From the IMG/VR virus record IMGVR_UViG_3300022664_000329, positions 1-55,526 of that record: a DNA stretch of 55,526 nucleotides; one strand, given 5' to 3'. Source of the stretch: a virus. This document shows, piece after piece, positions 16,269 through 34,200 of the stretch (the stretch's first letter is position 1; each line of letters opens with the position of its first letter). Made by a program: the position numbers and the translations under genes. Below the pieces are notes generated by a model. The model did not search any database. It had not been told where the DNA came from and was given only the letters and a program-made list of their open reading frames with translations.

Positions 16269-19200
16269 ATGCCGGACACCGACCGCCGCAATCATCACGA
16301 CATTGGCTATGGAGAGGATTTCTACCGAGCTTTAGACCCGCATTACCACGCGCCCGCCGCCCTTCCCGAAGCAAAATCAAATAACGATGCCGGTTATGGA
16401 GAGGATTTCTACCGGACTTTAGACCCGGATGCGCCGGCAACGCAAAAATCGCCTGCGGTCAAGACACCGTTACAAAACGCCCCCGAGCAACGCGGATTTT
16501 TCAAGGAAGCGGCCTCCGCGCTGGCTTCGGGCGCCGTCTCCACGGCGGAAGCCCTGACGTCCACAGCCGAGATGATCGGCGTGCCGGGCGCCGAGCGCGC
16601 TTCTTCCTATCTGCGCGGCGTGCAGGAATCCGAAGCGCTGGTCCGCCCCGATTATCTGCGCTCAGGCACCGTCCTGGATGAGCCCGCCCGCCTGGCCGAC
16701 TGGCGCTGGTGGACGAGAACAGTCGGAGAAAATATTCCCAATGCGCTGGCGATGCTGGTTCCGGCCGGCGCGGTAAGCAAGCTGGGCCAGATCGGCAAGC
16801 TCGGCACACTGCTCAAGGGCAGCGCAACCGCCCGCCGGGCCGCCGCCCTGGGCGCCGGCTTTTCGGCGTCCTTTCCCCTGGAAGCCGGTTCGGCGTATTC
16901 GAGCGCGAAACAGGAGATGTCGGCCACAGGACAGTATGACGCGGATACGATCGAACGCATTGCCACGGCCGAAGGCCTGGTCGCCGGAACGACAAACGCG
17001 ATTATCGAGCTGCTGCCGATCGACAGCCTGCTTTTCAAGCAGTCCGGCGGCGATCGGCTGCTGCGCCGCATTCTCCGGCAGGCGTACATCGAGGGCGGCA
17101 CGGAAACGGTGCAGGAGGCGGTCAATATTCTGGTGGAGCAGTACGGGCATGCCCCCGACGCCACGCTGAAGGATCAGATCGGCCGCGTGATCGAGGCGGG
17201 ACTGGCCGGCGGGGTGATCGGCGGCGGTTTCGGCGCGACGATCGGCACGGCCGAGCATCGCGCAAAGACCAACGCCTATTTGGCCATCGCGCATAAAACG
17301 GACCTGGATGAAGATATTGTCCGCTGGAAACAGGAGGACCTGCCGGACAAAAACATTGCCGAGCTGGTATCCGCAAGGCTCGATGACTACCGCCGCAGCG
17401 CCGCGCCCGACGAAACAACGCAGATTCCCGCCAAGATCGACGCGGCGGAAATGGTGTCGTTTGTGCTGTACGGCTCCGGCAGATTCCAGCCGGACCGCTC
17501 CGGTGCAAAAAAGAAAGCAGCCGTTTTACGCGCGATGGGCATGAAACCGAAAACGCCGCCCGCGGAAATGCCGATGACGACATCGGCCGCCGACGGCAAG
17601 GCGGTGATCACGGAAGAACAACGCGCCCAGGCGCAAAACGAGCGGGCCGCCGCGAACAGGAAGGCCCAGGGAAAGACGTTGTTCGACGCGGTGGCCAGCG
17701 AGGACCTGGCCGAAACGCAGGCGATCGAACAGGCGCGCCAGGATGACGAGGCCCGCCGCAATGCAGAAACGGTCCGCCTGGCCGCCGCCGAGCAGGCCAG
17801 CCGGGATAAGGCGGTAGCAGACGCCCAGAGCCGGCAAGACGCGCTCATCGCCCGCCTGGCCGGCGCTGATCCGCAAAAGCAGGCCCTCGTCCAAGACGTG
17901 CTGGGGCTTTCGGAACGGGCGCTTTTGTCCGCTGTGCAAAAAGAGCTGAAGCTGACTGTTACGCCCGCCGGCCCGGGAGCTTACACGGTGGAGACGCCCG
18001 GCGGGCCGCAGCCCGCCGATCTGTTCGATTTACGGCAACGCCTGGCCGAAAAGCGCTCGGCCGATTTTACGGCCCGCCAGGACGAGGAAGCGGCAAACGC
18101 GGCCGCGGTCCGCCGAATGGAAGAAGAACAGGCCCGGAAAAAAAGGGAGCGGGAAGCCGCCGCCGCTCTTGATATGTCCCGCCGTTCCCTTGTGGCTTCG
18201 CTTTCCGGCCCGACGCCGCAGCAGTTGGCCCATCTCAATGCCAACCGGCAGCGTTTGACGCCGGACGAGATTGCACGCCTGGACCGCTGGATGAAGAAGG
18301 ACCGCGACTCTGCGCCGGTGTCGCCGCCGCCTGCGCCCCGCCCGCCGGCTGTTATTTCGGAAGAGGTCAATGCCGCCGCCAAAGCGGCGCCACCCCCAAA
18401 GCAGGACAACGGGCAGGATGACGAGGCGGCCCTGGTCGATCTGATGCTGTCCGATGTGGCCAACGCCCGCAAGGGCGGAGAGCTGCGCACGGACGATGCC
18501 GGAGAAACGATACGGGACACGGCGGGCATTGCCTGGCTTACGGCCGCGAACAGAGCGGGCGCGGACGTAACGGTGAAGGACGCTAAAACGGTGCTCAACA
18601 AGGTCAAGACCGGAGAGGACCTGACGGAGCGCCAGCAAAGGCAGCTGACGGCGATTCTGGACGCCATGCGGGCGGCCGGCGGGGCGAAAGTCACGCAGGC
18701 GCTTTCCTGGGCGAAAAAAGGCTATATTCCGGTGGACAATCGCCGCATCGCCGTGCGCGACATGGTGGAAGGCGACTCCTATGTGATCGACAACGAGGAA
18801 TTCCGCGTCACGGATATCGATGACGCAGGAAATGTCACGCTCAAAGACGGAACGATCAAGAAGGTCCGCGACGGCGAGATGCTGACCGGCGTGGATTTTG
18901 TGAAGCCCGTGGAAGGCGCGGAAGATTTCAGCGGCGAATCCTTTGACGACGCCATGAAAAGAGTGGAGAGCGAAGCGGAGCCCCCCCAAGCGCCGCCGGT
19001 TCCCGAGAGCCGAAAGACGCCGCCCGCTTCCGTCGCCGTGACGACGGGGCTGAAAACCAAAGCTCCGGAGAAACGGGATATTTCGCAACTGGCCGGCGAT
19101 CTGGCCGCCGGACGTATCGCGCCCGGGAAATTCACGTTTCCCGCAGATGTTACGCCGCAGGAGATAAACGAGGTCTGGGACGATCTTTCCGCCGCCGTGG

Positions 19201-22200
19201 AAAATATCGCCAAGAAAAATGAGCCTTTCATCCGCGCTCTGCATGAGGAAATTGATGCGCTCGGCCCCGCCCGCACCGCCGCTATCAAGGCGCAAAAGAA
19301 AGCGCTGCTGGATAAGATCCGTGCGCTGCAGGACGAAGCCGATGCACTTGACCGCAAAATTACCAACGCATTTGAAGGCGCCCAGGCGCAGCTCCTGGAC
19401 ACAATCATTGAACGGGCCAAGGCCGAAGGTCTGTTTATTGACGACGCAGAGTCGGAAGAGGTTTATGAGCTGTATTCGACGCTACAGGAAGGACGTTCTC
19501 ACGACCCGCTCTTTATCGACGGGAAAATCCCGGAAGATTACGTCAATACCTGGACTGTCCCGCTGGCCGAGCAGATTCTGGATGAACTGCGCGCCCAGCA
19601 GCCTACCGGCGATGCGTATCCCGTCCCCAACAGTTCCGGCGTGTACAATGAGAAGCAGAAGAAAGCCGAAGTGATTAGCTTCCCGCAAAACAAAGCTTTT
19701 GACGCGGCCGTCTATGTCTTGCAGGTCGGTCCCGAAGAATGGATTTCGGCCGAGGACGTTTCGCTCAAAACCGGCAGCTATGCGGGACAGAGCTCGCCGC
19801 TGACGAAAAATCCGGTTTTCCCGACGCGCAAAGCCGCGCTGGCCGACGCGTTGAAAACGGTGCAGCAGTTCGGCGAAAGCAATGCCCGGGATGCCAGTTC
19901 GCCTGCAACCGACAAATCGCGCAAGGCCGCCGCCCAAATCGCTCAATGGGCCGAAAAGCAATACCTGGAGCTTTATCCGCCGTCGCAGGCGCCGTCGCAG
20001 GCGGTCGCCGTGACGACGGGGCTGAAGAAGACTCCGGAAACGGCGCCGCCGCCAATAATCAAACGGATTCTTGATATTTACGGGAGATATCATTACGTCG
20101 ACCAAAACGAATTGCAGGGCGATAGAACCATTCTTAAAACTTATAATAGCCGCGGAGAGCGCCTGCTCGCCGGAGGCGGAATCCACAGAGGATATATCGT
20201 TAATCAGGAAGACACCAGCGCCGTCGAGAAGGCAAGGAAAGTGGCGAGGTTGAGGAGTCTCGAAACCAAGGCGCAGAAAGAAATGTTGACGGATGGGGAA
20301 ATAAAAGAAACCAAAAGTCTCATTGCGGAAATCTACAACAAACCGGTTGAAAAACCCTCCGAACCTGCTACAATCCCCGACGTGACACCCCCCAAGGGGA
20401 CGGCCGACATACCCGCCAAGATAACCCCACAGGCCGAGGCGTGGAAAGACAAAATAGAAGCAGATGTAAAAGACGGTTGGTATATTCATGGTAGAAGGGG
20501 CACGGATGATCTTCTTTCTGAATTTAAAAAGCATGAAATATTTGTGTCAAAAGAGGCCGATGTTGCAGAAGATTATGCTGGCAACAAAGGTTCAATTTGG
20601 CAGCTAAGACCAAAGAAAACGGCAAACATCTTAGATGCGACCGACGACATTCAACGAACCGAAGTTGTCGATAGGTTAAAAGAACAGTATGAAAGCGGTG
20701 ATCTTAACAACGGCGCATATACTAAGCTCTCGCAAGAGATTGATGACGAAATTGAATCCTACGGCGAAGGCAAAGCATGGGAAAGAATATCTGAATCACT
20801 AAATCCGAAGGATATCGTTGAAGATGAGGGATTTTATAGCGATACTGACTTTGTAAATTGGCTTTACGAAAACTTTGAATACGATTTTGTTTCAACAAAT
20901 CGCGGAGGCGTTGCCTATAATCCAGATGCTTTCGATCTAAAGAAATTCAACCCTAACCCATCCCGCCCCCCGGAGGTTGGGGGGCAGTCTGTAAACCTGT
21001 CCACTGAAGATCTGTTTGGGGCCGTTGAAAAAGCCGTGACGACGGGGCTGAAACCGAAAAAGGCCGCCGCCCTGCCGCCCGAAATGCCGATCATCCGCGC
21101 CCGCCTTCAACACCTGAAAAGCCTGGGCGTAAACACCGCCGGATATGATGAATGGGTAAAGGTTATGGAATCCGGCGACGCCGCGGCGCTGGCCAACGAA
21201 CCGCCGGCACAAGATACCCTGCGCGCCATCAATCTGACCATTGCCGAGGAAGAAAAAATATTAAAGGCCCAGGCCCAGGAGAAAGGATTCGGCGCGGGCA
21301 ATACGCTCTTTACCGAGGACAAGGCGGCTAAGGCCCGGGCGATTCTCAAGGCCAAGTTGTCCGGCGCGCAGCTCAATGCCGGCATTGATCCGGAAATCCT
21401 CACGGCCGGCATCGACCTGGCCGGGTATTACATCGAAGGCGGCGTGCGCAAGTTTGCGGACTTCACTGCAAAAATGGTGGAGGATATCGGCGAGCAAATC
21501 CGGCCCTATCTCAAGTCGCTTTACCTGGCCGTGCGCAATTATCCCGGCTTCGACAATGCGGGAATGGAGACGGAAGCCGATATCGAAAAGTCCTTGACCG
21601 CCGCCGCCGCCACAGATAAAATCGCCGCGAAGGGAGAAAAAAGCCATGCCGATTCATCTGACCTTGACGCCGGAGCAGCAGGAAACGCTCCAGCGGTTGC
21701 AGCCTCTGCTCGACAAGCAGAACAAAACGCCGGAAGATTACCGGAAGATGTCCGAGCTGTTGTATCCGGAATTGAAGGCCAAGCTCGCCGCGAAGGGAGT
21801 GAAGTTCCCCAAGGCGTAAATCTCCCGGCGGAGATCCAGGCGCACGCCGAGCAGTACCTCTACCATGCCACTTACGCGGAAAAAATCGCCGGCATCAACG
21901 CCGCCGGCCTCGATCCGACCAAATCCAACCAATACATTTACGGCAACGACACGACGAAAAGGGTGTACCTTTCCCCGGACCAGGAGTTGTCTCTCGCGTT
22001 CGGCGACGTGCTTTTGCGCGTCCGGCGCAGCGCTCTGAATCAAAAGCTCCTCAAGGAAATCGCACGCCAGGGCGGTCAGGAAGTCTGGTATTTCGACCGC
22101 ATCGCCCCGTCGCTGATCGAACGCCTCACCCCCCGCGGCGAATGGGCCGCCCTGTCTGCGCAAACGGAGAAGATTCCGCAAAGCGTGGCCGTGACGACGG

Positions 22201-25200
22201 GTGCCAAAACGCCGAAAACAAAAGAATCCCCCTACATGGCCGCGGTCGGACTGATTTCCGGCGGCCGCGCGGACCGCGCCGTTGCCCGCGGTTATGTTTT
22301 TGCCTATGGCCCGGCGGACGCCGCCACCCAAAGTGAAATGGTAGGCCTCTTTTCGGGTCTGGCCGCCGATAAGCTCATCGAGGCGGGGATTACGATAGAA
22401 CGCAAAACGCCCGCCGCCTTCAAGAAAGGCGACCGCGTGGTGATGAAAAACGGCCGCCACGGTGAAATTATCGCCGATGAAAGCTACACGATGATCGCGG
22501 CCACGATCTTCGGTGGGCAGAGAAACGTCGAGCGCTACGAAAATTACCGCGTCCGCACCGACGCCGGCGCAGAATTCGGGATGATCAAACCGGAGGACCT
22601 GACGAAGGAAACGGAAAAACCGGCCGAACCGGTGGTTCCGGACATAAAACTCATAGACGGTCATTTTAACGAACCGGACCGTGTTTTAAACCGAATCGCC
22701 CTGCATCAAAGCAATGAACAGAAAAAACGTGCTTCCGCACAACGGGCGCGAAAGCAGGATAACATTGATAAATTATTAGAAGCCGCAGAAAAAGAAAAGC
22801 GAATCGCTGCTGGTTTGCGCGCCCGCTATGACGAATGGGCCGCAAAGTATCCGGACGAAGCGGCCAAGCACGCCCCGGCCAAGACGCTGCCGCCCATCGG
22901 CCAGGTGCATCCGTCGATCCGGGAGAAGTATGCGGCAAAGCCGACTGCCGCAGCAGCAAAAGCATATCCGGACTTGACCGTGTCCGGTCACCCCAAACCC
23001 GTGCCGGATCATCCGGATGCCTCTTATGTGGTTCATATCCGCAAGCCGGACTTGATCCCTGACACTTTCCGCGTCGTTGTGTCTGCACAACGCGCGGCAG
23101 GCGGCGGTTTCCTGACGCAGGCCGGAACGGGCATGACTCCGGAACAGGCGTATGACAATGCCCTGGCCAACTACGACAGGACCATTGAAACGCGGCGATC
23201 CTCCACCAACCAGGACGCTGAGAGCGTCACGAACACAACCACACCCGTTGACAACGAAAAAACAAACGATTATAATAAGATTGAACAGGAGGCCCAAGAT
23301 GCCCCATCTGACCGACACGATACAGACGAAACATCGTCTGAAGATGATCGAGCAGGCGCTCAAGGACCAGGCACCCGAGATGTATCAGCAACTTCAGACG
23401 AAAGGTCAACTTCCGGAGTATCTCAAGGAACGCGACGCGCTGATGATGAACACGTTCGAGGTCCTGTTCGTGGAACTCTGCAAGCTGCCATCCGACACGA
23501 ATCCGACCTATCAGGAACAAGTCCAGCACCTGACTTCCGCACGCAACCGGGCGTGGGAAGAAACAATGGCGACGTGGCTGACGTTCAGCGATCCGCAGCC
23601 GGAGAGCGAACCGACCATGTCATCACCCCCGGCGCCATAGACCGTACCGGTTCCTGGTTCCAGACCGCCAAAAACAATCTCGACATCATCGAACTGGCAA
23701 AAAAAATCCAGACGGAAAACCGTCCGGCAACGCCCACCGAACAGGCGCTGCTTGCCCGCTATACGGGCTTCGGCGCGTCGGAAATCGCCAACCGGATGTT
23801 TCCCGGCTGGGCCGAAGCGGGCGAGATTCAACTCTGGCGCGCCGATCAAAAATGGAAGCCGCTGGTGGAACGCATGCAAAAGCTGTTTTCACCCGCGGAG
23901 ATCGCCACGGCCGCCCGCTCTACGCAATACGCGCATTACACCAGCCCGGCCATTATCGATTCGATCTACAAAGCGCTTGACGGCTTCGGCTTTCCCGGCG
24001 GCCGCGTCCTGGAACCGGGCATGGGCGTGGGCTCGTTTTTCGGTCTGATGCCGGAATCGATGCGGACGACAACAAAATATACCGGCATCGAAATGGACGG
24101 GATTACGGCGCAGATCGCCAAGCTCTTATATCCTCGCCAGAATATTATTGAAGGCGATTACACCAAGGCGCAGTTTCCAAATAATTATTTCGACCTGGCT
24201 ATCGGCAATCCTCCGTACGCCAAAACGATGATATTGGCCGATCCGGATTACAAGAAGCTGCGGTTGTCGCTGCATGACTTCTTTTTCGTCAAATCCCTGG
24301 ATAAAATCCGCCCCGGCGGGCTCATGGTGTTCATCACGTCGCGCTATACGATGGACAAGGTGGACAGCCGCGTGCGCAAAATCCTCAATGAAAAGTCCGA
24401 CCTCCTGGGCGCCGTCCGCCTGCCGCAAACGGCATTTGCAAAAAACGCCGGCACGGAAGTGGTAACAGACGTGATTTTTCTGCGCAAGAAAGTCCCCGGC
24501 GAAAAAAGCGCCGGGATGATGTGGGGCGAAGTCGCCCCGGTTACTACGCCGGAAGGCGATTTCCGCATCAATGAGTATTACCTGGCCCACCCCGAAATGG
24601 TTCTCGGCGATCATTCCGGCCGCGGCACAATGCAAAATTCCCGCGATCCGCAATACACGGTCCTGCCCCGCGAAGGCAATATCGAAGAGGCGTTTGCCCA
24701 GGCCGTCACCCATCTGCCCAAAGCCGTCTATTCCCTGATCAAAGCCGCGCCGGCGGTGCAGGAAGCCGCCGCGATCGAAAGGGACTTCAATCCACAAAAC
24801 AAGAAAGAAGGCGGCTTGTATCTGTCCCCCAACGGCCAGGTGATGGTCACGGAGTCCGGAGCCGGTGTGCCGATTACCGCTATCGCCCCGAAACTGTCAG
24901 ATAAAGACAGGCGCTGGTTGACGTCCTATATCACGCTCCGGGACGCGGTGAAGCAATGCCAGTATGACCAGCTCACCGACGGAGACTGGGAGTCGTCGCT
25001 CAAGGAACTCAACAGGGTGTACAAGGCCTTTAAAATGGCCTGGGGCCGCATCAATGCGTTTACGATCACTGAACGCAAATCCACGGACGAAGACGGAAAG
25101 GAAATCACCATCCATCTGCGCAAATTCGCCAACAGCCGCCTTTTGCGCCTGGATGTCGAATCGCCGCTGGTCATGGCGCTCGAAAAGGTGACGGAAGATT

Positions 25201-28200
25201 TCCAGATCGCCGACGGCCCGTTTCTTTCCAGCCGCACGATTAAAAAACCGGAACCGCCGCAAATCTCCACGGTCGCCGACGCCCTGGCCGTTTCGCTGAA
25301 TGAAAAGGGCCGGCTCGATCTCGCGCATATCGCGTCTCTCATGGGCGCCAGCGAAGCCGATGTCTTCGAGCAGCTGGGCGATCTGGTCTATGACACTCCG
25401 GATAAAGGCATTCAACTTGCCGACGCCTATCTGTCCGGCAATGTGGTGAAAAAGCTGGAGGAAGCCAAGGCCGCCGCGAAAATCGATCCCAAGTACGAAC
25501 GCAATGTGCAGGCGCTGATCGCGTCTTTGCCCAAGCCGCTGACCGCTAAAGACATTACGCCTTCTCCCGGCGCAACCTGGATTCCGCTGCCCGTGTATAA
25601 CGATTTTTTGCACGAGGTGCTTGAACTGCCCGAAAGCGCAGCCGCCGATCATTCCCCCGCCGACAACCAATGGACAATTTCCGGCCTGCCCGTGCAGTCG
25701 CAGCGCGGCCGCGCCTCCGCATGGTCATCACCCGACCGCGGCGCAAATGAAATTTTCTCTGCCGTTCTCAATAATGCGACGCTGAAGGTCTATAAGACGG
25801 AAAAAGTCGCCGGCGTTGAGAAGACGTATCTGGACCCGGCCGCGACGGCGCAGGTCAACGATATCGCCAAGAAGATGAAAATCCGTTTTCGCAACTGGGT
25901 ATGGGAAAACGCCGGCCGCGCGCACGAGCTCCTGAATATCTACAATTCCACCCGCAATAATATCGTGCCGCGGCGCTTTGACGGTTCGCACCTGACGCTG
26001 CCCGGCGTCTCTTTGCGCTTTAAGCTCATGCCGCACCAGAAAAACGCGATCTGGCGCATCATCCAGGACGGCAATACCTATATCGCCCACGCCGTCGGCG
26101 CAGGCAAGACGTATGAGATGGTCGCCGCCGGCATGGAAATGAAACGCCTGAGCCTGATTTCCAAACCGCTCTATGTGGTGCCCAACCATATGCTCCAGCA
26201 GTTTGCCAACGAGTTTCAGGAACTCTATCCGCTGGCGCATGTGATGGTGGCGGACGAGGAAAACTTCCATACGACGAACCGCCGCCGTTTCATGGCGCAA
26301 GCCGCCCTCAATAATCCCGATGCGATTGTGATCACGCATTCCGCTTTCGGTCTGTTAAAAATGAAGCAGGAAAACATCCTGCCGGTGCGCAATGACGTCG
26401 TCTCTGAAATGCAAGCCGCACTGGATGATCTCGAAGGCGATAAAAAAGCCAACCGCATCCGCATTAAACAGATGGAGGCGCGCATCGAACAGACCGAACA
26501 ACGTTTTGAATCCATGATCGCCCAGGGCGACAACGTCATTACGTTTGAAGATATGGGCGTTGATTTTCTGTTTGTGGACGAAGCCCACCAATTCCGCAAG
26601 CTGGATTTTACGACCAACCGCCAGGCCAAGGGCGTCGATCCGTCCGGGTCGGTCCGCGCTATGATGCTCTACATTAAAACACAATGGCTGGACCGTCAGA
26701 ACCCCGGCCGGTCCCACGTATTTGCCTCCGGCACGCCGATTACCAACACGATGGGAGAACTCTACACGGTAATGAAGTTTTTCGACATGGACGGGCTCCG
26801 GCGCGACGGCCTGGACTATTTCGATTCCTGGGCCGCGGAATACGGAGACATGAACTCCGCGCCCGAGATGAACGCCGCCGGCCGCTATGAGATTGTCGAT
26901 CGCTTTTCCCGTTTTGTGAATGTGCCGGAATTGATGAGCCGGGTCCGGTCGTTTATGGACGTTCTGACGTCCTCGCAGCTCGGCGCTTTTGTGAAACGGC
27001 CGAAAGTGCGCGGCGGACAGCCGACGATCGTGGTGACGCCGGCATCCCCCGCCCTCAAAAACTACCAGACGAATGTCCTGCTGCCGCGCATTGAGAGCAG
27101 CAAGAACTGGAAACCGAGTAAGGAGGAGCCCGGTAACCCCGACCCGCTCATCAATATCATCACGGACGGCCGCCTGGCGTCGATCGATATGCGGTTCGTC
27201 GCCCCCGGTTCTCCCAATGATCCGGACAGCAAACTCAATAAGTACATCGACAAGATTATTGAGCATTACAAGGAAACCGCAGGCCATACCTATCTGGACC
27301 CGGCCACGGGCCAGAAAAGCCCCGTTCGCGGCGCGGCGCAAATCTGTTTCTACAATCACGGATTCGGGCGCGGTGTGGCCTCCAGCCGCGGATTTGACGC
27401 CCGCGCCTGGGCCATGCGCCGCTTCAAGGAGGCGGGCATCCCGGTCGATGAAATCGCCTGGATTGACGATTTCGACACGGCCGCCAAAAAAGAAGCGGTG
27501 ATGAAAGAGGTCCGCAACGGCCACAAACGCATCCTGATCGGTTCGGCGAAGAAAATGGGCACGGGCATGAATGTGCAAACCAGGCTTTCTCACATGACGT
27601 ATCTGGATCCGCCCTGGTATCCGTCCGACGTCGAACAGCCGGTCGGCCGCATTCTGCGCCAGGGAAACCAAAACGAAGAAGTCGGCATTTTCTATTTTTC
27701 GACCAAGGGCAGCTATGACGCCACCATGTGGCAGATGGTGACGCGCAAGGCCAAATTCATTGAAGACGCTTTGGCCGGCGGCGGCGCCCGCGCCATCGAG
27801 GATATTTCCGAGTCGTCGCTTTACGAAATGGCCGCCGCCCTGGCCTCCGGCGATGAGCGCGCCATCCGTCTGGCCGGACTCAGAAACGAGATTGAAGGGC
27901 TGGAAAATCTGCGCTCCGCGCACTATCACACGCAGACGAATCTCCAACGTGAAAAACGTCTGTATGAAATCGGCCATCCGGGAAAAAAAGCGTATGTCGC
28001 CAAACTGGAAGCGGCGATGCAAAAAGTACCGTTCGATCTGCGATATTTATCCGCTCAGCATCCGATCAAGGCCAAACTCGGCCACCGGGACTATACGGAC
28101 CGCAAAGCTTTCGCCCAGGATCTCCTGGCGAAGATCGTGGCTCTGCGCAATGCCGGCACGGCAGGCACGACACCGATCGGCCATTTCTTCGGGCTGGAGT

Positions 28201-31200
28201 TGCGTGTTGTGCAGGCGCAGGGCGGAAACACGGAAGTGTGGGACCGCAGCGGACAGACGGAATTAATCCCCGGAAAGGTGGTCAATCAGCTCCAACTGCG
28301 CATTACGGATGATGTGATCTATGACGTCGCCAGCGATATCACGGATACGTCCGACGCGCCGGGCCTCGTGACCCGGCTCACGAACCGCGCTAAAGCCGTG
28401 CCTTCCGATCTGGCTCAGGCGAAACAATCACTGGAAGAAACCGAAACGGAACTTAAAAAGATCAACGCCCGTCTCGGCGCGCCTTTTGAGCTGGCGCGTG
28501 AACTGGAAGAAAAAATCGCCGAAGCGGCGCAGATTGACGCCGATCTGGTCCGCGAAGGACAGGCCACCGCCGCCGCACAACAACAGCAGCACACTGCGCC
28601 GGCGCAAACACCCGATCAGACTCCGCCCGACACTTCCGGGCCGATGCTTTCGCTCGAAGAAACTCCGATATTTTTCTCGCAGATGTCCCGCGTGCTCCAG
28701 GCGAAGCTCCCCGGCTCCGGAACGCCCGAACAGTACCGCTCCGCGATTGTCTCCTGGGCCAACAAGGGCGAATTCAAGGCCGACGAGTTGAAATGGTCCG
28801 GGCTCACCGACTGGCTGGTGGCGCAAAAAGGGAAGCTCGCCAAACAGCAGGTGCTCGATTATCTGGCGGCCAACGAAGTGCAGCTCCGGGAAGTGCATCT
28901 CTCCGACACCCCCTCCGATCCGCAGCTGGACCGTCTGAAAAACGCCTTTGCACAAGCCGAGGAGGGCGTACGGGCTATCGAGCAGGCGCTGGGCGCCCGT
29001 CCCTATATGTCCGGTGCGCCTCTGCGCTGGATGTACCGGCCGGACGACGAAGCGCCCCGGAATGTGCCGAAGCAGTATTTCGACACGCTGGACCGCTGGT
29101 CGGAAGCAAGACTCGACCTGGATGATTACCAGGCCACCCATGAAGGATTTTTTGAAGAAGATGAGGAAAGCACCGGCCGTACGCAATACTCTAATCAACA
29201 ACTTCCCGGCGGAAAGAATTACCGGGAACTGCTTTTGACGCTGCCGGAAAAGAAAACCGTCCCCACATTGAAGCACTCTTACCGTTCCGCCCATTGGAAC
29301 ACGCCCAATGTTCTGGCGCATGTGCGCTATAACGACCGGACGGATGCCAACGGGAACCGCGTCTTGTTTCTGGAGGAAGTCCAATCCGACTGGCATCAGG
29401 AAGGCAGAAAAAAAGGGTATGCTGACGACAAAATTACCAGGACGCCGCCGACCCGGGACGAAATAGCGCAAGAGATTTATGGTGCGCGATATGCGGACCT
29501 GGACACGGTAACGCAAAGCGCCGTCGATGGAGAACTTGACGCCAGAATTCATGGCACCGGCGGCGCCGCGCCTGCGACCAGCGGCATCAGTTACGTTCCG
29601 CCTGCGCCGTTTGCCAAGACCTGGCATGAGCTGGCCATGAAGCGGATGCTGCGCTATGCGGCTGAAAACGGCTACGACAAGGTGGCTTGGACCACGGGCG
29701 AACAGCAGAACGAGCGATACAATTTGAGTAAGCATATCGAGAGTATTGGTTACCACAAAAGGGGCGATTTGTTCGCGCTCACCGTTTGGGATAAAAAAGG
29801 CAAGGCTATATACCAAAATCAATCAACCACGAAGCAAGAGGTTGAGAACACCATCGGCAAAGAAATGTTGCAAAAGATGGAAGCCAATGTCGGACGCCGG
29901 GAAAATGGGAATTTTTACATTGAAGGTCTCGACCTGAAAGTCGGCGGCGAAGGAATGAAGGGCTTTTACGATACGATCCTGCCCGCCTTCGTGAATAAGT
30001 ATGCGAAAAAGTGGGGGGCGAAAGTCGGTACAGCGGATATCCGGACGGAAGCATTAAACAGGACGCCTGGAGCAGCTAAAGCTGATACGGTATCCGTGCA
30101 CGCGATCGACGTCACGCCCGCGATGAAAGAGTCCGTCCTGACCGGGCAGCCGATGTTTTCGCGCCAGGATAAAACAGCCCACCGGCGCCCCCATCGTCTG
30201 GGCGACGTGGAGCTGGATGAGATGGTGCAGCAGCTCGCGGCGCTGCTCAAGGGCGTGAAAATTGTCAAACACGGAAACGAAATCCGGCTCAAAACCCGAT
30301 CCGGTGAGGAAGTCCGGATCGAATCCGCCGAGCAGATCGATCCGGACACCATCGCGCTGGCCATCAAGAAGCATTATTCGCAGGATAAGAAGCAGACGCC
30401 GCAATCCGGCGCAGGCGTGGCCGGTATGTATTCGGCGGGCAAGATCACGCTGGTGGAGGATGTGGCGGGCATCTGGACGCTGTCCCATGAGTTTTATCAT
30501 TTCCTCGAAGACATCGGCGCGATATCCAACGCCGACAAGGCAACGCTGAACCGCAAAATTGCATATCTCGTCACGTCTCAACCCGAAACCTATGGCTATC
30601 TGCAGGAGCGGTCGCTCCCCGAACAGCGGGCCGATTACGTGGGCCGCACGCTCACGGGCATGTATGACGCGACGACGCCGACCGGCACGATCCTGGCGCG
30701 CATCCGCGAAGTCATCGACCGCATTCTCAACGCGCTCGGCATCCGGACGGCCCGCGGCATCCTGCGCGATATTGAAACCGGGAAGATTTATAAGGACCAA
30801 GGGGAAAGGAACAAGGGGCAAGAGAAAGGGAAAACTCCCCTCCTCCGGCAGGATATTGACAACATCCGGGAACGGGCTTATACTTATGGTGAAGGAGGTA
30901 AGCATGAGACATCTGTATCCGATTCCGGATTCGACGGAGAAGGTAGCCGGCAGTATCCCGGACGAGACGCCGCCTTACGGTTCCAGCCGACCGTCGTCGG
31001 CCGCGAAAAGAAAGGCTCCATCCCGGCCGCAGGACGCATCGTCCGAACACCACACGACGCCGCGAAAATCGCAGCAACGTATCTAAACAAGTATCCAGAT
31101 GAACACATGATTTCCCTTGTCCTTGATGCCAAGGGCAAGGTCATCTCCGTGTATCATCACACCAGCGGCCTGCCCGGAAACTCCCAGGCATCGATGCCGA

Positions 31201-34200
31201 TTCTCGCCGGCGAAGCCATGAATACCCCCGGCGCGTCATCTATTATTGTTGCCCATAACCATCCGTCCCAAAACGCTGAATTTTCGCCAGAAGACCGTGC
31301 ATTTGCCCGCCAACTGAACAACTTATTGACCGGCTCCGGCGTGACCATGCGGGATTTTCTGGCAGTTGCACAGAAACAATATTCTTCTTACAGCGAAAAT
31401 ATGCTCGTTTATGTCGACGACAGCGTTGACATAAACAGCGCCAGATCAGGAGTAAAAATCCCTATTGTTGGCCGAATCTTTGAATCGGTACGCTCTCCCC
31501 TCCTCAAGGTTTCGTCCGCCGAGGATGCCTTGCCGCTGGCGCAGCAGTATATCCCCGACGGTGGAACATTGATATTGGATGGCCAAAACGCCCTTGCCGG
31601 TTTTTCCACTATTCAGAACTATGGACGAATTCGCGGCGACGCGCAGCGGGCTATTTTGCAGGATATCGAAAAACGAAACGGCCGCGCCATGATCGTCTAT
31701 TCCCCCGGTCGTATCGTCGGCACAGCCGAATCTTTTAATCTCGGGAAGTTTATTGCTGCAACCGGCGGCCAGGTCCGCCTGTTAGATATTATTGATTCGT
31801 CCGGCTCTCACGCGGACAATGGGGATATGCCCGCGATTCCCACGGCAGATTCCAGCTTGTTTTTGTCCGTTGCCGAAGATGTCACCGAAAAAGCGGCAGA
31901 CGCCGTCGGGCGCAAAGTCTCCCGCGCGGTCGATCTGATCACGGGGCGCGTATCTCCCGAAAAACGGGAGACGCTTTCCGCCCTGCGCAAAAGCTGGGCG
32001 GAATTCTGGCGGCCGTTTTCGACGGTGACAAACGGCGAGGAGGTCCTGGCCCGCCGCTATGAATCGATGGGCAATGTGGCCAAGGCGGTGCGGTTTATCG
32101 AGACGATGAAGGCGGAACTGGATCAGTTCCCGCCGGAAACGAAGAAAGATATTTTCTGGTATCTGAACGGCGACATTCCGCTGACCGTCCTGCCGGAAGA
32201 CGCCCAGACTTTTGCGAAAAATATTCATCGCCGGACGGAAATTATCGGTGAAATGCTGGTGGACCGCGGGCTCCTGACGGAAGAAACCTTTGAGGCACAC
32301 AAAGGCACGTACGTTCACTACCTTTACGCCAAGCATATCGTGGGCGAAGATGCGCCCGTGGGCATTACGTCGTCGGGCAAGCTGGATCTGTCCTACACGC
32401 TCCGGCGCAATCCCGATCTGACGATGCAGCAACGCAAGGAGCTGGGCCTGATCGACGATGCTTCCGTCGCCGTGCCGGTGGGCATGGGCAAGGCGCTCAC
32501 GGATATTGCGAAGTTCGATTACCTGGAGACGATCGCGGAAAATCCCGACTGGGTCTGGCAGCCGTCCGTGGTGCGTGTGGCCGTGGGCAAAAAGCTCAAG
32601 ACGCCGGTGATGGGCCGGACGCGGCGCTATGTGATGATGGGCATCGGCAAACTCCAGGAACAGGTCCGCACGTATGACGAGATGATGCGGACGCGGCCGA
32701 CTACCGAAGTGGCGGAGATCCACAAAATCCTCACGGACGCCTGGCAAAAAGAGCAGGCCAAGACGCAAAACGCGCCCGCCGACTTCGTGCAGCTGCCCAA
32801 CACGCGCGGCTACGGGCCGCTCGCGGGCGCCTTCGTCAAAAAGCCGATCGCGGACGATCTGCGCCCGGTGATGGATGTCAATACGGACCGCGGCAAACTG
32901 CTCAACACGGTTCTGGAAATCGAACGCCAGGGCATGGCGGCGTTCAAGATGGGGAAAGTCGCGCTCAATATTCCGACGGCCTGCCGTAATATCGTGTCCA
33001 ACATCATTCAGAACAACATGCGCGGCCGCGCGCTGGCGAAGATCCCCGGCGATATCGTGGCCGCCTGCCAGTCGATGAAAGCCAGGGACGCTCATTATGA
33101 AGAGGCGTTCGGCATGGGGCTGTTCCATACGAATTGGTTCGTGACGGAAATCAACGATGTGCTCCAGGAATTCCGCAAGATCGAGTCCGGCCGGATCGAT
33201 CAAATCCTGTCTGCGGTGAAAAACGTGGCGAAGTATTACGGCCGGATTGACGATATCAGCAAGTTTGCGATCTTTCTGCAGATGCGCAAAGCCGGCGCTC
33301 CGATCGACAAGGCCGCGATCGAAGCCATGAAATGGGGAATGGACTATTCGCTCACGTCGCGCTCGATCAAGGGGCTGCGCCAGACGATCATGCCGTTTGC
33401 GACGTACCAGTATAAGATCGCTCCGCTCATCGCCGAATCGCTGCGCAAGCGGCCCTGGGTGCTCGCCAAGTTCGCGCTGATTTATCCGGCGGCCAAGCTC
33501 GCGGCGATGGCGCTGCACGATCTGGACGACGATGACTGGGAGGACCTGGAAAAACAGCTGCCGGCCTATATCAAGAAGTCCGGCTCGATGATGATTCTGC
33601 CCTGGAAGACGGATCAGGATCAATGGCAGTGGGTGAATCTGGAGTATTATTTCCCGTTCGGCAATATGCTGGCGATTTTCCGCGATGCCAAGGCGCTGGA
33701 TTCCGGCGAGGCGCTGCGCGATCTGGGCATTTCCAATCCGTTTCTATCCATGTTCTACACCGGGCTTTCGGCCCGCGAGGATTCTCCGCCCTTGCATGCG
33801 TATTCCGGCATTCCGATTTACAATGAGCTCGATCCGGGATGGATGAAGGCGGCAAAATATCTGGAGTACATGGCCAATACGTGGCTGCCCGGCATGCTCA
33901 CGCGCCAGGGCGCCCTGGGCTACACGGGCAAAGCGATTGCCGGCGGCGAGGACCGCTGGGGCCGCGAGGTGTCGTTCGGCCAGGCGCTCGGCCGCTGGTT
34001 CGGTTTCAATATTGTCTCGGTGTCGCCCGAGCAGTCCCGCGCGCAGGTGGCGGTGAAGATCCAGGATCTGCACAAGGAGATGGCCCGGATCGAGGCCGAT
34101 CCGTCCCGCAGCGACGAAGCTAAGGCGGAATACCGCGCCCGGATGAATGAAGAGTTGTCGCAGATGGCCGAGCAGGCGCCGGCCGCCGTGCTGCCGATCA

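Follow-up and report, generated by a model that had tools for sequence, protein, structure and literature searches.

A small TnpV-like gene nested out of frame in a giant DarB-like phage gene and probably overprinted by a younger linker

The viral record IMGVR_UViG_3300022664_000329 of IMG/VR, analyzed here over its whole length of 55,526 nucleotides (nt) and hereafter called the window, carries on its plus strand a single open reading frame (ORF) of 6,095 amino acids (aa) that spans about 18 kb (16269..34556 in the ORF list). Inside it, in the +1 frame, lies an ORF of 113 codons (23299-23640) that, judging from its sequence and that of its relatives, most probably represents a live nested gene overprinted by a giant-frame linker younger than the small gene, both proteins being presumably made. 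The features on which this reading rests are as follows.

16269..34556, plus strand: giant ORF encoding a DarB-like polyvalent protein (ORF list, Pfam matches after 23640, DNA and protein similarity to phage DarB-like genes).
23248..23276, plus strand: predicted sigma-70-type promoter, TTGACA (23248-23253), 17 nt, TATAAT (23271-23276) (the only 12/12 site, with conserved hexamers).
23287..23292, plus strand: Shine-Dalgarno (SD) sequence AGGAGG, 6 nt before the nested ATG.
23299..23640, plus strand, +1 frame: nested gene, ATG to TAG, for an acidic, four-helix, TnpV-like protein of 113 aa (translation, codon signal, homologues, sub-threshold Pfam match, AlphaFold2 model and dN/dS, the ratio of nonsynonymous to synonymous substitution rates).
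23280..23612, plus strand, frame 0: giant-frame linker of ~110 residues rich in D/R/G/S/T/A/E (composition, absence of stops, dN/dS).
23613..24620, plus strand, frame 0: start of the methyltransferase module (DHVITPGAIDRTGSWFQTAKNNLDIIELAKK...) (identity to relatives, substitution bias, dN/dS).

Translation from the ATG at 23299 to the TAG at 23640 reproduced the 113-aa protein quoted in the initial annotation of this DNA, and the perfect SD sequence claimed there was found with its 6-nt spacing. Over the same bases frame 0 reads DAPSDRHDTDETSSEDDRAGAQGPG...ERTDHVITPGAIDRTGSWFQTAKNNLDIIELAKK, open and rich in S/T/D/R/G as had been described, and recognizable giant-frame sequence is back at DHVITPGAIDRTGSW. 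ORF length was rejected as evidence for the nested gene, as several alternative-frame ORFs of 110-175 aa exist elsewhere on the plus strand of the G+C-rich giant ORF. Codon usage was followed frame by frame, in windows of 50-60 codons, with a log-odds table for which the remainder of the giant ORF served as training set. In those starting at 23259-23469 the log-odds of frame 0 fall to -0.2 to -0.7 per codon and those of the +1 frame rise to +0.1 to +0.5, which bears out the claim that the codon signal leaves the giant frame, here over ~23260-23620, and then returns to it. The G+C content of third codon positions (GC3) over the nested interval is 0.25-0.37 in frame 0 and 0.72-0.75 in the +1 frame, the latter agreeing with the ~73% of G/C-ending codons previously counted by hand. 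Elsewhere in the 18-kb giant ORF, a frame-0 codon deficit is seen in two short places only.

Homologues of the small protein were recovered by a word-indexed search (four), by a profile search (19, all of 84-141 aa) and by an exhaustive hidden Markov model (HMM) search of 1.84 billion representatives, which returned 197 matches (50%-identity representatives) at E<=1e-3; among the 150 matches listed of these 197, nearly all are 85-140 aa long and none exceeds 500 aa. In the three loci whose small proteins are 55-73% identical to that of the window (L002, L003 and L004), the frame that continues into the methylase is open through the whole small ORF. The nested layout was found in at least 14 distinct metagenomic loci and extends down to ~30% small-protein identity (L005-7, L010-12, L014-19, L022-25, L030, L031, L033 and L034, from IMG/VR, metagenomes and metagenome-assembled genomes (MAGs)); in these nested loci the open frames end only at contig or locus edges, and they exceed 2,600 aa where the flank is long enough. 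Free-standing copies, which share their start Met with the nested ones, were found beside a resolvase and a SIR2 gene (L001), in a Syntrophorhabdaceae MAG (L013) and near a small terminase on the chromosome of Geobacter sp. AOG1 (L032).

The layout also recurs in cultured phages. No match was found with the window small protein as a tblastn query against the phage collection. A search of six-frame translations with the family HMM revealed copies of 107 aa in Burkholderia phage CSP3 (E=3e-11) and Ralstonia phage Eline (E=1e-8), both located in the +1 frame within a single annotated giant coding sequence (CDS) and with a small-frame GC3 (0.88-0.89) equal to that of the giant gene downstream. The CSP3 copy, used in turn as a tblastn query, retrieved 41 records, including Bcep22, BcepIL02, BcepMigl, DC1, JC1 and 31 Ralstonia phage records. 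A second subfamily (MNLNNW..HWKEHQP...EAWEM.RE.YLFPP), which aligns with the first (hhalign E=4e-5, probability 69%), is likewise located in the +1 frame 5' of the methylase, in 21 records from phages of Erwinia, Klebsiella, Pseudomonas, Vibrio, Agrobacterium, Ochrobactrum, Sinorhizobium and Microcystis; it lies mostly directly before the methylase module, and ~0.6 kb upstream of it in Agrobacterium phage Atu_ph08 and Sinorhizobium phage PBC5. In total, the nested layout is present in 62 GenBank phage records, in all of which only the giant CDS is annotated under the match and the small gene in none. No small ORF was found in P1 darB, which also lacks a fused upstream part, or in a low-GC faecal phage relative. 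As a separate observation, the "hypothetical proteins" annotated in Pseudomonas phage Itty13 (L047, MW460249.1 5545-8823) run opposite to the giant methylase frame and the nested ORF, probably as a wrong-strand gene call.

The giant frame has no stop codon over the nested ORF in any of the 22 distinct nested loci tabulated, and the third frame has 6-11. The chance of such openness was assessed with two null models, one keeping the small protein and resampling its synonymous codons at the giant ORF's usage, the other permuting each gene's own synonymous codons. Resampling leads to an expectation of ~3 giant-frame stops and a probability of an open frame, P(open), of 0.01-0.04 per locus, and even a baseline P(open) of 0.4 gives ~1e-4 over ten deeply divergent lineages. 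A complete ORF is hence embedded in a longer one, both staying open in relatives beyond chance. The initial annotation had also considered that the 6,095-aa ORF might really be separate genes (an upstream gene, the small gene and a methylase/helicase gene) with frame 0 stop-free by chance, an option left unsupported by these data and which we consider improbable. Without a frame-0 stop, ribosomes coming from the upstream part must continue into the methylase part, and the 22 open loci include lineages with only ~30% small-protein identity. No conserved frame-0 start codon exists 3' of the small ORF; the 62 phage records are annotated with one CDS, and in cultured relatives the product is a single giant protein, which in the case of JC1 (gp69, 4,515 aa) has been identified in virions through 51 unique peptides in a search of annotated proteins only (PMC9144972). 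What speaks for separate genes is that gene callers split the region into a small and a downstream gene on short contigs, that P1 darB stands alone with its own predicted promoter, that the alternative frame is also open in some free-standing homologues, and that P(open) by permutation reaches 0.5 at one locus.

Signals for independent expression precede the small ORF. The TTGACA-17-TATAAT site ends 22 nt before the nested ATG and is unique as a 12/12 match, both within the giant ORF and over all 55.5 kb of the window, for which 0.01 such sites are expected by chance; it falls within what the initial annotation had called an AT-rich stretch, neither the promoter nor the widespread occurrence of the arrangement being remarked there. 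Perfect hexamers are also found in L003, L022 and L033, with diverged spacers, and in L002, with an identical one, and matches of 8-11/12 stand at the same distance in L011, L014, L016, L017, L018 and CSP3. When the loci are aligned, similarity starts at the -35 hexamer, no alignment being possible 5' of it. Read in the giant frame, the site is part of VDNEKTNDYN, and the conserved peptide (V/I)DN..K..DYN of this frame is nothing more than the translation of the two hexamers. An SD sequence of GGAG/GAGG type stands 5-9 nt 5' of the start in most nested loci and is weaker in a few, the G+C content dips by 0.16-0.20 at -45 to -15 of the nested start, and the initiation region is less structured than the background in most loci (median percentile 0.12). 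In most loci the embedded gene thus has initiation signals of its own, SD and ATG in an AT-rich, weakly structured start. No conserved frame-0 restart codon, which would let the internal promoter express the methylase part, was found near the small ORF's stop; P1 darB has its own predicted sigma-70 promoter.

These same signals bear on a second alternative, in which a programmed +1 frameshift upstream of 23299 would fuse the N-terminal part of the giant protein to a TnpV-like domain ending at 23640, the AGGAGG acting as stimulator. In prfB, +1 frameshifting is stimulated by an internal SD sequence; the window has an open +1 frame from 23137 onward, and in PBC5 the upstream part shares the frame of the small ORF and terminates at the same stop codon. 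We nonetheless regard a frameshift as quite unlikely, given that the +1 frame opens only 7 codons (L005/L006) or 3 codons (L007) before the ATG, no conserved shift site fits, and the alignment holds no conserved sequence upstream of the -35 hexamer that could serve as one. Moreover, the ATG is invariant in the nine aligned loci with canonical SD spacing, free-standing homologues begin at the same Met, and the consensus promoter directly upstream points to a separate transcript.

Selection acts differently on the two frames. Across the overlap, the third positions of small-frame codons collect the most substitutions and those of giant-frame codons the fewest. The flanking giant gene shows the opposite pattern, and the methyltransferase module has the normal third-position bias. 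Estimates of dN/dS by the Nei-Gojobori method, for pairs near saturation at synonymous sites, were as follows.

Small frame, overlap: 0.10-0.51 (11 pairs).
Giant frame, same bases: 1.3-2.2.
Giant frame, just downstream: 0.08-0.16 (6 usable pairs).

Both the ratios and the third-position pattern indicate purifying selection on the embedded frame. The linker of the window is composed of 86% disorder-promoting and 11% hydrophobic residues, compared to 70% and 28% elsewhere in the giant protein, and over 22 loci the values are 81-95% and 4-19%, with ~30% hydrophobic residues in the flanks. From the substitution pattern and the linker composition it follows that the sequence of the small protein is conserved and that the giant frame is kept only open and hydrophilic. 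Among the possibilities raised initially, the one that gains support is hence that of an overprinted gene whose other frame serves as a disordered linker, as the small frame shows purifying selection, homologues and start signals, and the giant frame is unconstrained but open.

TnpV is the sole consistent Pfam match of the family, with 7 of 8 members at E<0.1 (best E 3e-4), all below threshold; the second subfamily scores 20.7 and 18.0 bits on PF14198, also sub-threshold. A profile built from the window protein and four homologues recovers the distant member P0140 (E=1.4e-6), which scores 35.7 bits on PF14198, above the cut-off, and five of the other nine sampled family matches are sub-threshold TnpV, so that the family is linked to bona fide TnpV through an intermediate sequence. 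The context of a TnpX-type large serine recombinase was not found for the window copy, which lies inside a phage virion/antirestriction gene, and a resolvase/recombinase gene is close by in just one free-standing homologue, L001. Because the family matches are sub-threshold and only one distant member passes, we call the family TnpV-like and not TnpV. The window small protein matched no PHROGs family; the PEp14 copy matches only the C-terminal end of phrog_938, a match that seems to reflect the fused reading of PBC5 orf33, to which the profile is equal in length, and the CSP3 copy matches phrog_6126 weakly (E=0.008). The small protein is acidic (pI 4.9; family members mostly pI 4.4-5.6). AlphaFold2, run with 19 sequences, predicts four helices (residues 7-24, 26-34, 38-61 and 71-93) with a pLDDT of 82 and a pTM of 0.66, and disorder in the last ~13 residues, exactly where the last ~10 codons of the small ORF overlap the conserved methylase lead-in.

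In a third alternative, the small ORF would be a dead relic left by a gene fusion; the giant protein alone would be made, and the codon signal would be fading. No database record annotates the small ORF, as such a relic would have it. Its small-frame dN/dS of 0.1-0.5 over pairs near synonymous saturation, the retention of the full-length ORF with its ATG, and mostly its SD, in more than 20 lineages down to 30% identity, promoter hexamers conserved over diverged spacers and a confident fold prediction together make this very unlikely. The fusion fossil proposed in the initial annotation is accordingly divided: as history it is probably right, homology starting exactly at the -35 hexamer, but as a description of the present it is wrong, the small gene being no fossil. 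Finally, an assembly artefact in which two compensating indels shifted an originally in-frame TnpV domain can hardly be entertained, despite the flanking homopolymer runs (aaaaaa at 23259-23264, aaaaaaaa at 23700-23707) and the single indel that changes the configuration in PBC5, since metagenome assemblies made independently and dozens of isolate genomes, sequenced in different laboratories on different platforms, share the same +1 layout, and since among the 150 matches listed none is longer than 500 aa, so that none is in frame within a giant protein.

Several observations weigh against a live TnpV-like nested gene overprinted by a linker, or narrow it. The match of the window small protein to PF14198 (E=3e-4) reaches 21.1 bits for a gathering threshold of 27, so that the TnpV resemblance noted initially is real as a distant relationship but stays below the Pfam cut-off. 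A Foldseek comparison of the AlphaFold model with the PDB and BFVD gave nothing better than E ~1 and no functional lead. With synonymous permutation, P(open) ranges from 0.01 to 0.5 per locus, and 3 of ~7 free-standing homologues (L013, L027 and L032) are also stop-free in the corresponding alternative frame; because of these homologues, the openness of the giant frame must be partly intrinsic to a K/E/D-rich family with C/G-ending codons. The promoter is not evident in the second subfamily and is weak in Eline, so a separate transcript is not a general feature. Lastly, PBC5 (L046, AF448724.1 26155-26700 region) has the upstream giant part in the frame of the small ORF: orf33 (2,185 aa) ends at the small ORF's stop, and the methylase frame is open from 575 nt upstream. 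PBC5 differs from its relative Atu_ph08, which has the usual nested layout, by a 1-nt indel just before the small ORF's ATG that could be a sequencing error or a natural variant; if the configuration is real, other configurations are viable.

According to the nested-gene reading, ribosomes on the giant gene would read the nested bases in frame 0 as a disorder-prone linker of ~110 residues without sequence constraint, covalently joining the N-terminal ~2,340 residues to the methyltransferase-helicase-RadC part, and translation of the small protein would start independently, from an SD and an ATG of its own. In the promoter-bearing clade, the small gene probably has a transcript of its own from the predicted consensus sigma-70 promoter. 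The small frame is likely the older one. As relatives share sequence only from the -35 hexamer onward, we infer an ancestral unit made of the promoter, the small gene and a darB-like methylase/helicase gene, which may have become fused to different upstream modules of virion proteins when the small gene was read through in another frame. Since that fusion, selection would have maintained both the sequence of the small protein and a stop-free giant frame. Selection for covalent linkage would be explained by the virion association of the JC1 giant protein, linked parts being packaged and delivered together.

The giant protein itself falls into two parts. No Pfam family was matched by residues 1-2,343. 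The region 3' of 23640 encodes an Eco57I-type N6-methyltransferase, a ResIII/SNF2 helicase with Helicase_C and a RadC-like JAB domain; Eco57I, ResIII and Helicase_C are above the Pfam cut-offs, and SNF2-rel_dom is just under its own (23.2 vs 24.9 bits). The methylase region shares 52-55% identity (tblastn) with "DarB-like antirestriction" genes of Burkholderia (Bcep22 group), Ralstonia and Erwinia phages, P1/P7 darB being more distant relatives (27% identity, E=7e-16), and the module at 23613..24620 is 52-83% identical in amino acid sequence to related loci and cultured phages. The nested gene's stop codon (23638-23640) falls within this conserved module. An N6-adenine methyltransferase and an SNF2/ResIII helicase in one polypeptide, with homology to P1 DarB, place the giant gene among the DarB-like genes. 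The window as a whole looks like a podophage-like genome, with a large terminase, a D5-type primase and tail-like proteins 5' of the giant ORF, and a weak, sub-threshold match to an SU10-type adaptor.

Two other traits of the giant ORF were observed. The sequence (V)AVTTG(L/A)K, accompanied by a K/P/T-rich stretch, occurs in four copies (19035-19055, 20007-20027, 21033-21053 and 22188-22208) spaced 324-385 residues apart in the N-terminal half of the protein, which could be repeated linkers or processing sites. Terminator-like sites (a hairpin plus a T run) are in excess within 16269-34556, with 41 of them vs 27.8 +/- 5.6 in shuffled sequences, and most lie on the minus strand, antisense to the giant ORF; the JC1 giant gene likewise has two predicted antisense terminators inside (PMC9144972).

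The giant ORF contains two further cassette-like sites.

ATG 21646..21819, plus strand, +1 frame: second candidate nested gene, 57 aa (MPIHLTLTPEQQETLQRLQPLLDKQNKTPEDYRKM...) (promoter-like site, AAGGGAG, codon signal).
30856-31086, plus strand, +1 frame: third cassette-like site, with a 60-aa ORF from ATG 30904 to 31086 (promoter-like site, SD sequence, codon signal).

The 57-aa candidate is preceded by TTGACC-17-TAAAAT (21594-21622, 10/12) and AAGGGAG, and the codon log-odds of the +1 frame exceed those of frame 0 in windows starting at 21609-21699. It stands directly 3' of a conserved domain (AGYYIEGG..PYLKSLY); in cultured phages this domain precedes the TnpV-like ORF, and in CSP3, Eline, Atu_ph08 and PBC5 it does so immediately. 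It matched neither of the two TnpV-like profiles and had no homologue in the word-indexed search, and no relative was found when viral contigs were scanned with the giant-frame protein around it. At the third site, TTGACA-17-TATACT (11/12) is followed by AGGAGG, 5 nt and the ATG at 30904; the coding signal of the 60-aa ORF is marginal and its peptide is of low complexity.

Two observations concern the family outside phage-like methylase genes. In L009 (10001-10426), the 141-aa protein P0019 has the small protein at its start and then switches to the giant-frame peptide (..RNPRNVAGVRGTDYRIGEGE..); located outside a phage-like context, it is what a frameshift has left of the nested arrangement. 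In L029 (1131-2816), a TnpV-like ORF (2128-2385) is nested in the alternative frame of a 561-aa ORF with neither a methylase nor a Pfam match, which may be another host gene for the arrangement.

Because the small gene always lies directly before the methylase module, a doubtful guess is that its protein could act as a partner that assists or regulates the DarB-like antirestriction module. On a wider scale, it is possible that the giant polyvalent virion proteins of this group of phages have been built by alternative-frame read-through of small genes that persist alive and equipped with promoters; the TnpV-like protein would then be an obligatory partner or regulator of the DarB-like methylase-helicase, expressed from a host-type promoter on a schedule unlike that of the late giant gene, up to three cassettes (21646-21819, 23299-23640 and 30904-31086) might be present in the giant ORF, and the -35 hexamer would mark a point of module exchange between phages.

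Annotation pipelines discard ORFs embedded in longer ones, and for this reason a conserved gene has been overlooked in no fewer than 62 phage records of GenBank, among them the founders Bcep22 and BcepIL02 as well as several phages that are candidates for therapy. No description of it was found in literature searches, and in a term search the polyvalent-protein survey (PMC5512222) proved to mention neither TnpV, overlap nor frameshift. The fixed site of the gene before an antirestriction methylase-helicase module offers a handle on how DarB-like proteins may be regulated or assisted, and the two-frame layout permits mutations silent in one frame and disruptive in the other. An older small gene with a younger fusing linker suggests one route by which giant polyvalent proteins could grow, and frame-specific codon plots over giant phage ORFs can expose hidden genes.

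Among known systems, the DarB protein of P1 and the polyvalent proteins of Bcep22-like phages (PMC5512222, PMC9144972) share with the window giant protein a core of methyltransferase and SNF2-type helicase and a position after tail/virion genes, P1 darB differing in that it has neither the fused upstream part nor the small ORF. TnpV of Tn4451/Tn4453 (PF14198), postulated to be Xis-like (PMC3158075), is likewise a small helical protein (~100-120 aa) of mobile elements, matched in Pfam by both subfamilies; unlike it, the nested proteins score 17-22 bits vs 27 and are encoded inside a phage structural/antirestriction gene, not beside a TnpX-type recombinase. Out-of-frame remodelled gene families, in which a frame change is reported to replace part of a protein (PMC8788219), resemble our case in that an existing coding stretch is read in another frame within another protein, and differ from it in that here both readings coexist and are conserved across many phage genera. 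The closest parallel is Rz1 inside Rz, an embedded out-of-frame gene noted for Bcep22-like phages (PMC9144972), together with viral overprinting, where the younger frame typically encodes a peptide of biased composition and prone to disorder (PMC8227390, PMC3494269): in both, a complete +1 ORF with its own initiation signals lies wholly inside another, and one frame is disorder-prone. Unlike pairs of the Rz1/Rz type, however, the embedded gene appears here to be the older, constrained frame, the host gene providing the younger one; this younger frame yields no new protein but a linker fusing the domains of a polyvalent protein, the embedded gene has a promoter-like site of its own, and its product is not known to be functionally coupled to that of the host gene. 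Embedded out-of-frame genes are thus well known in phages, and what is unusual here is the greater age of the embedded frame, a linker as the younger frame, an apparent promoter of its own, and a widespread occurrence that has gone unannotated.

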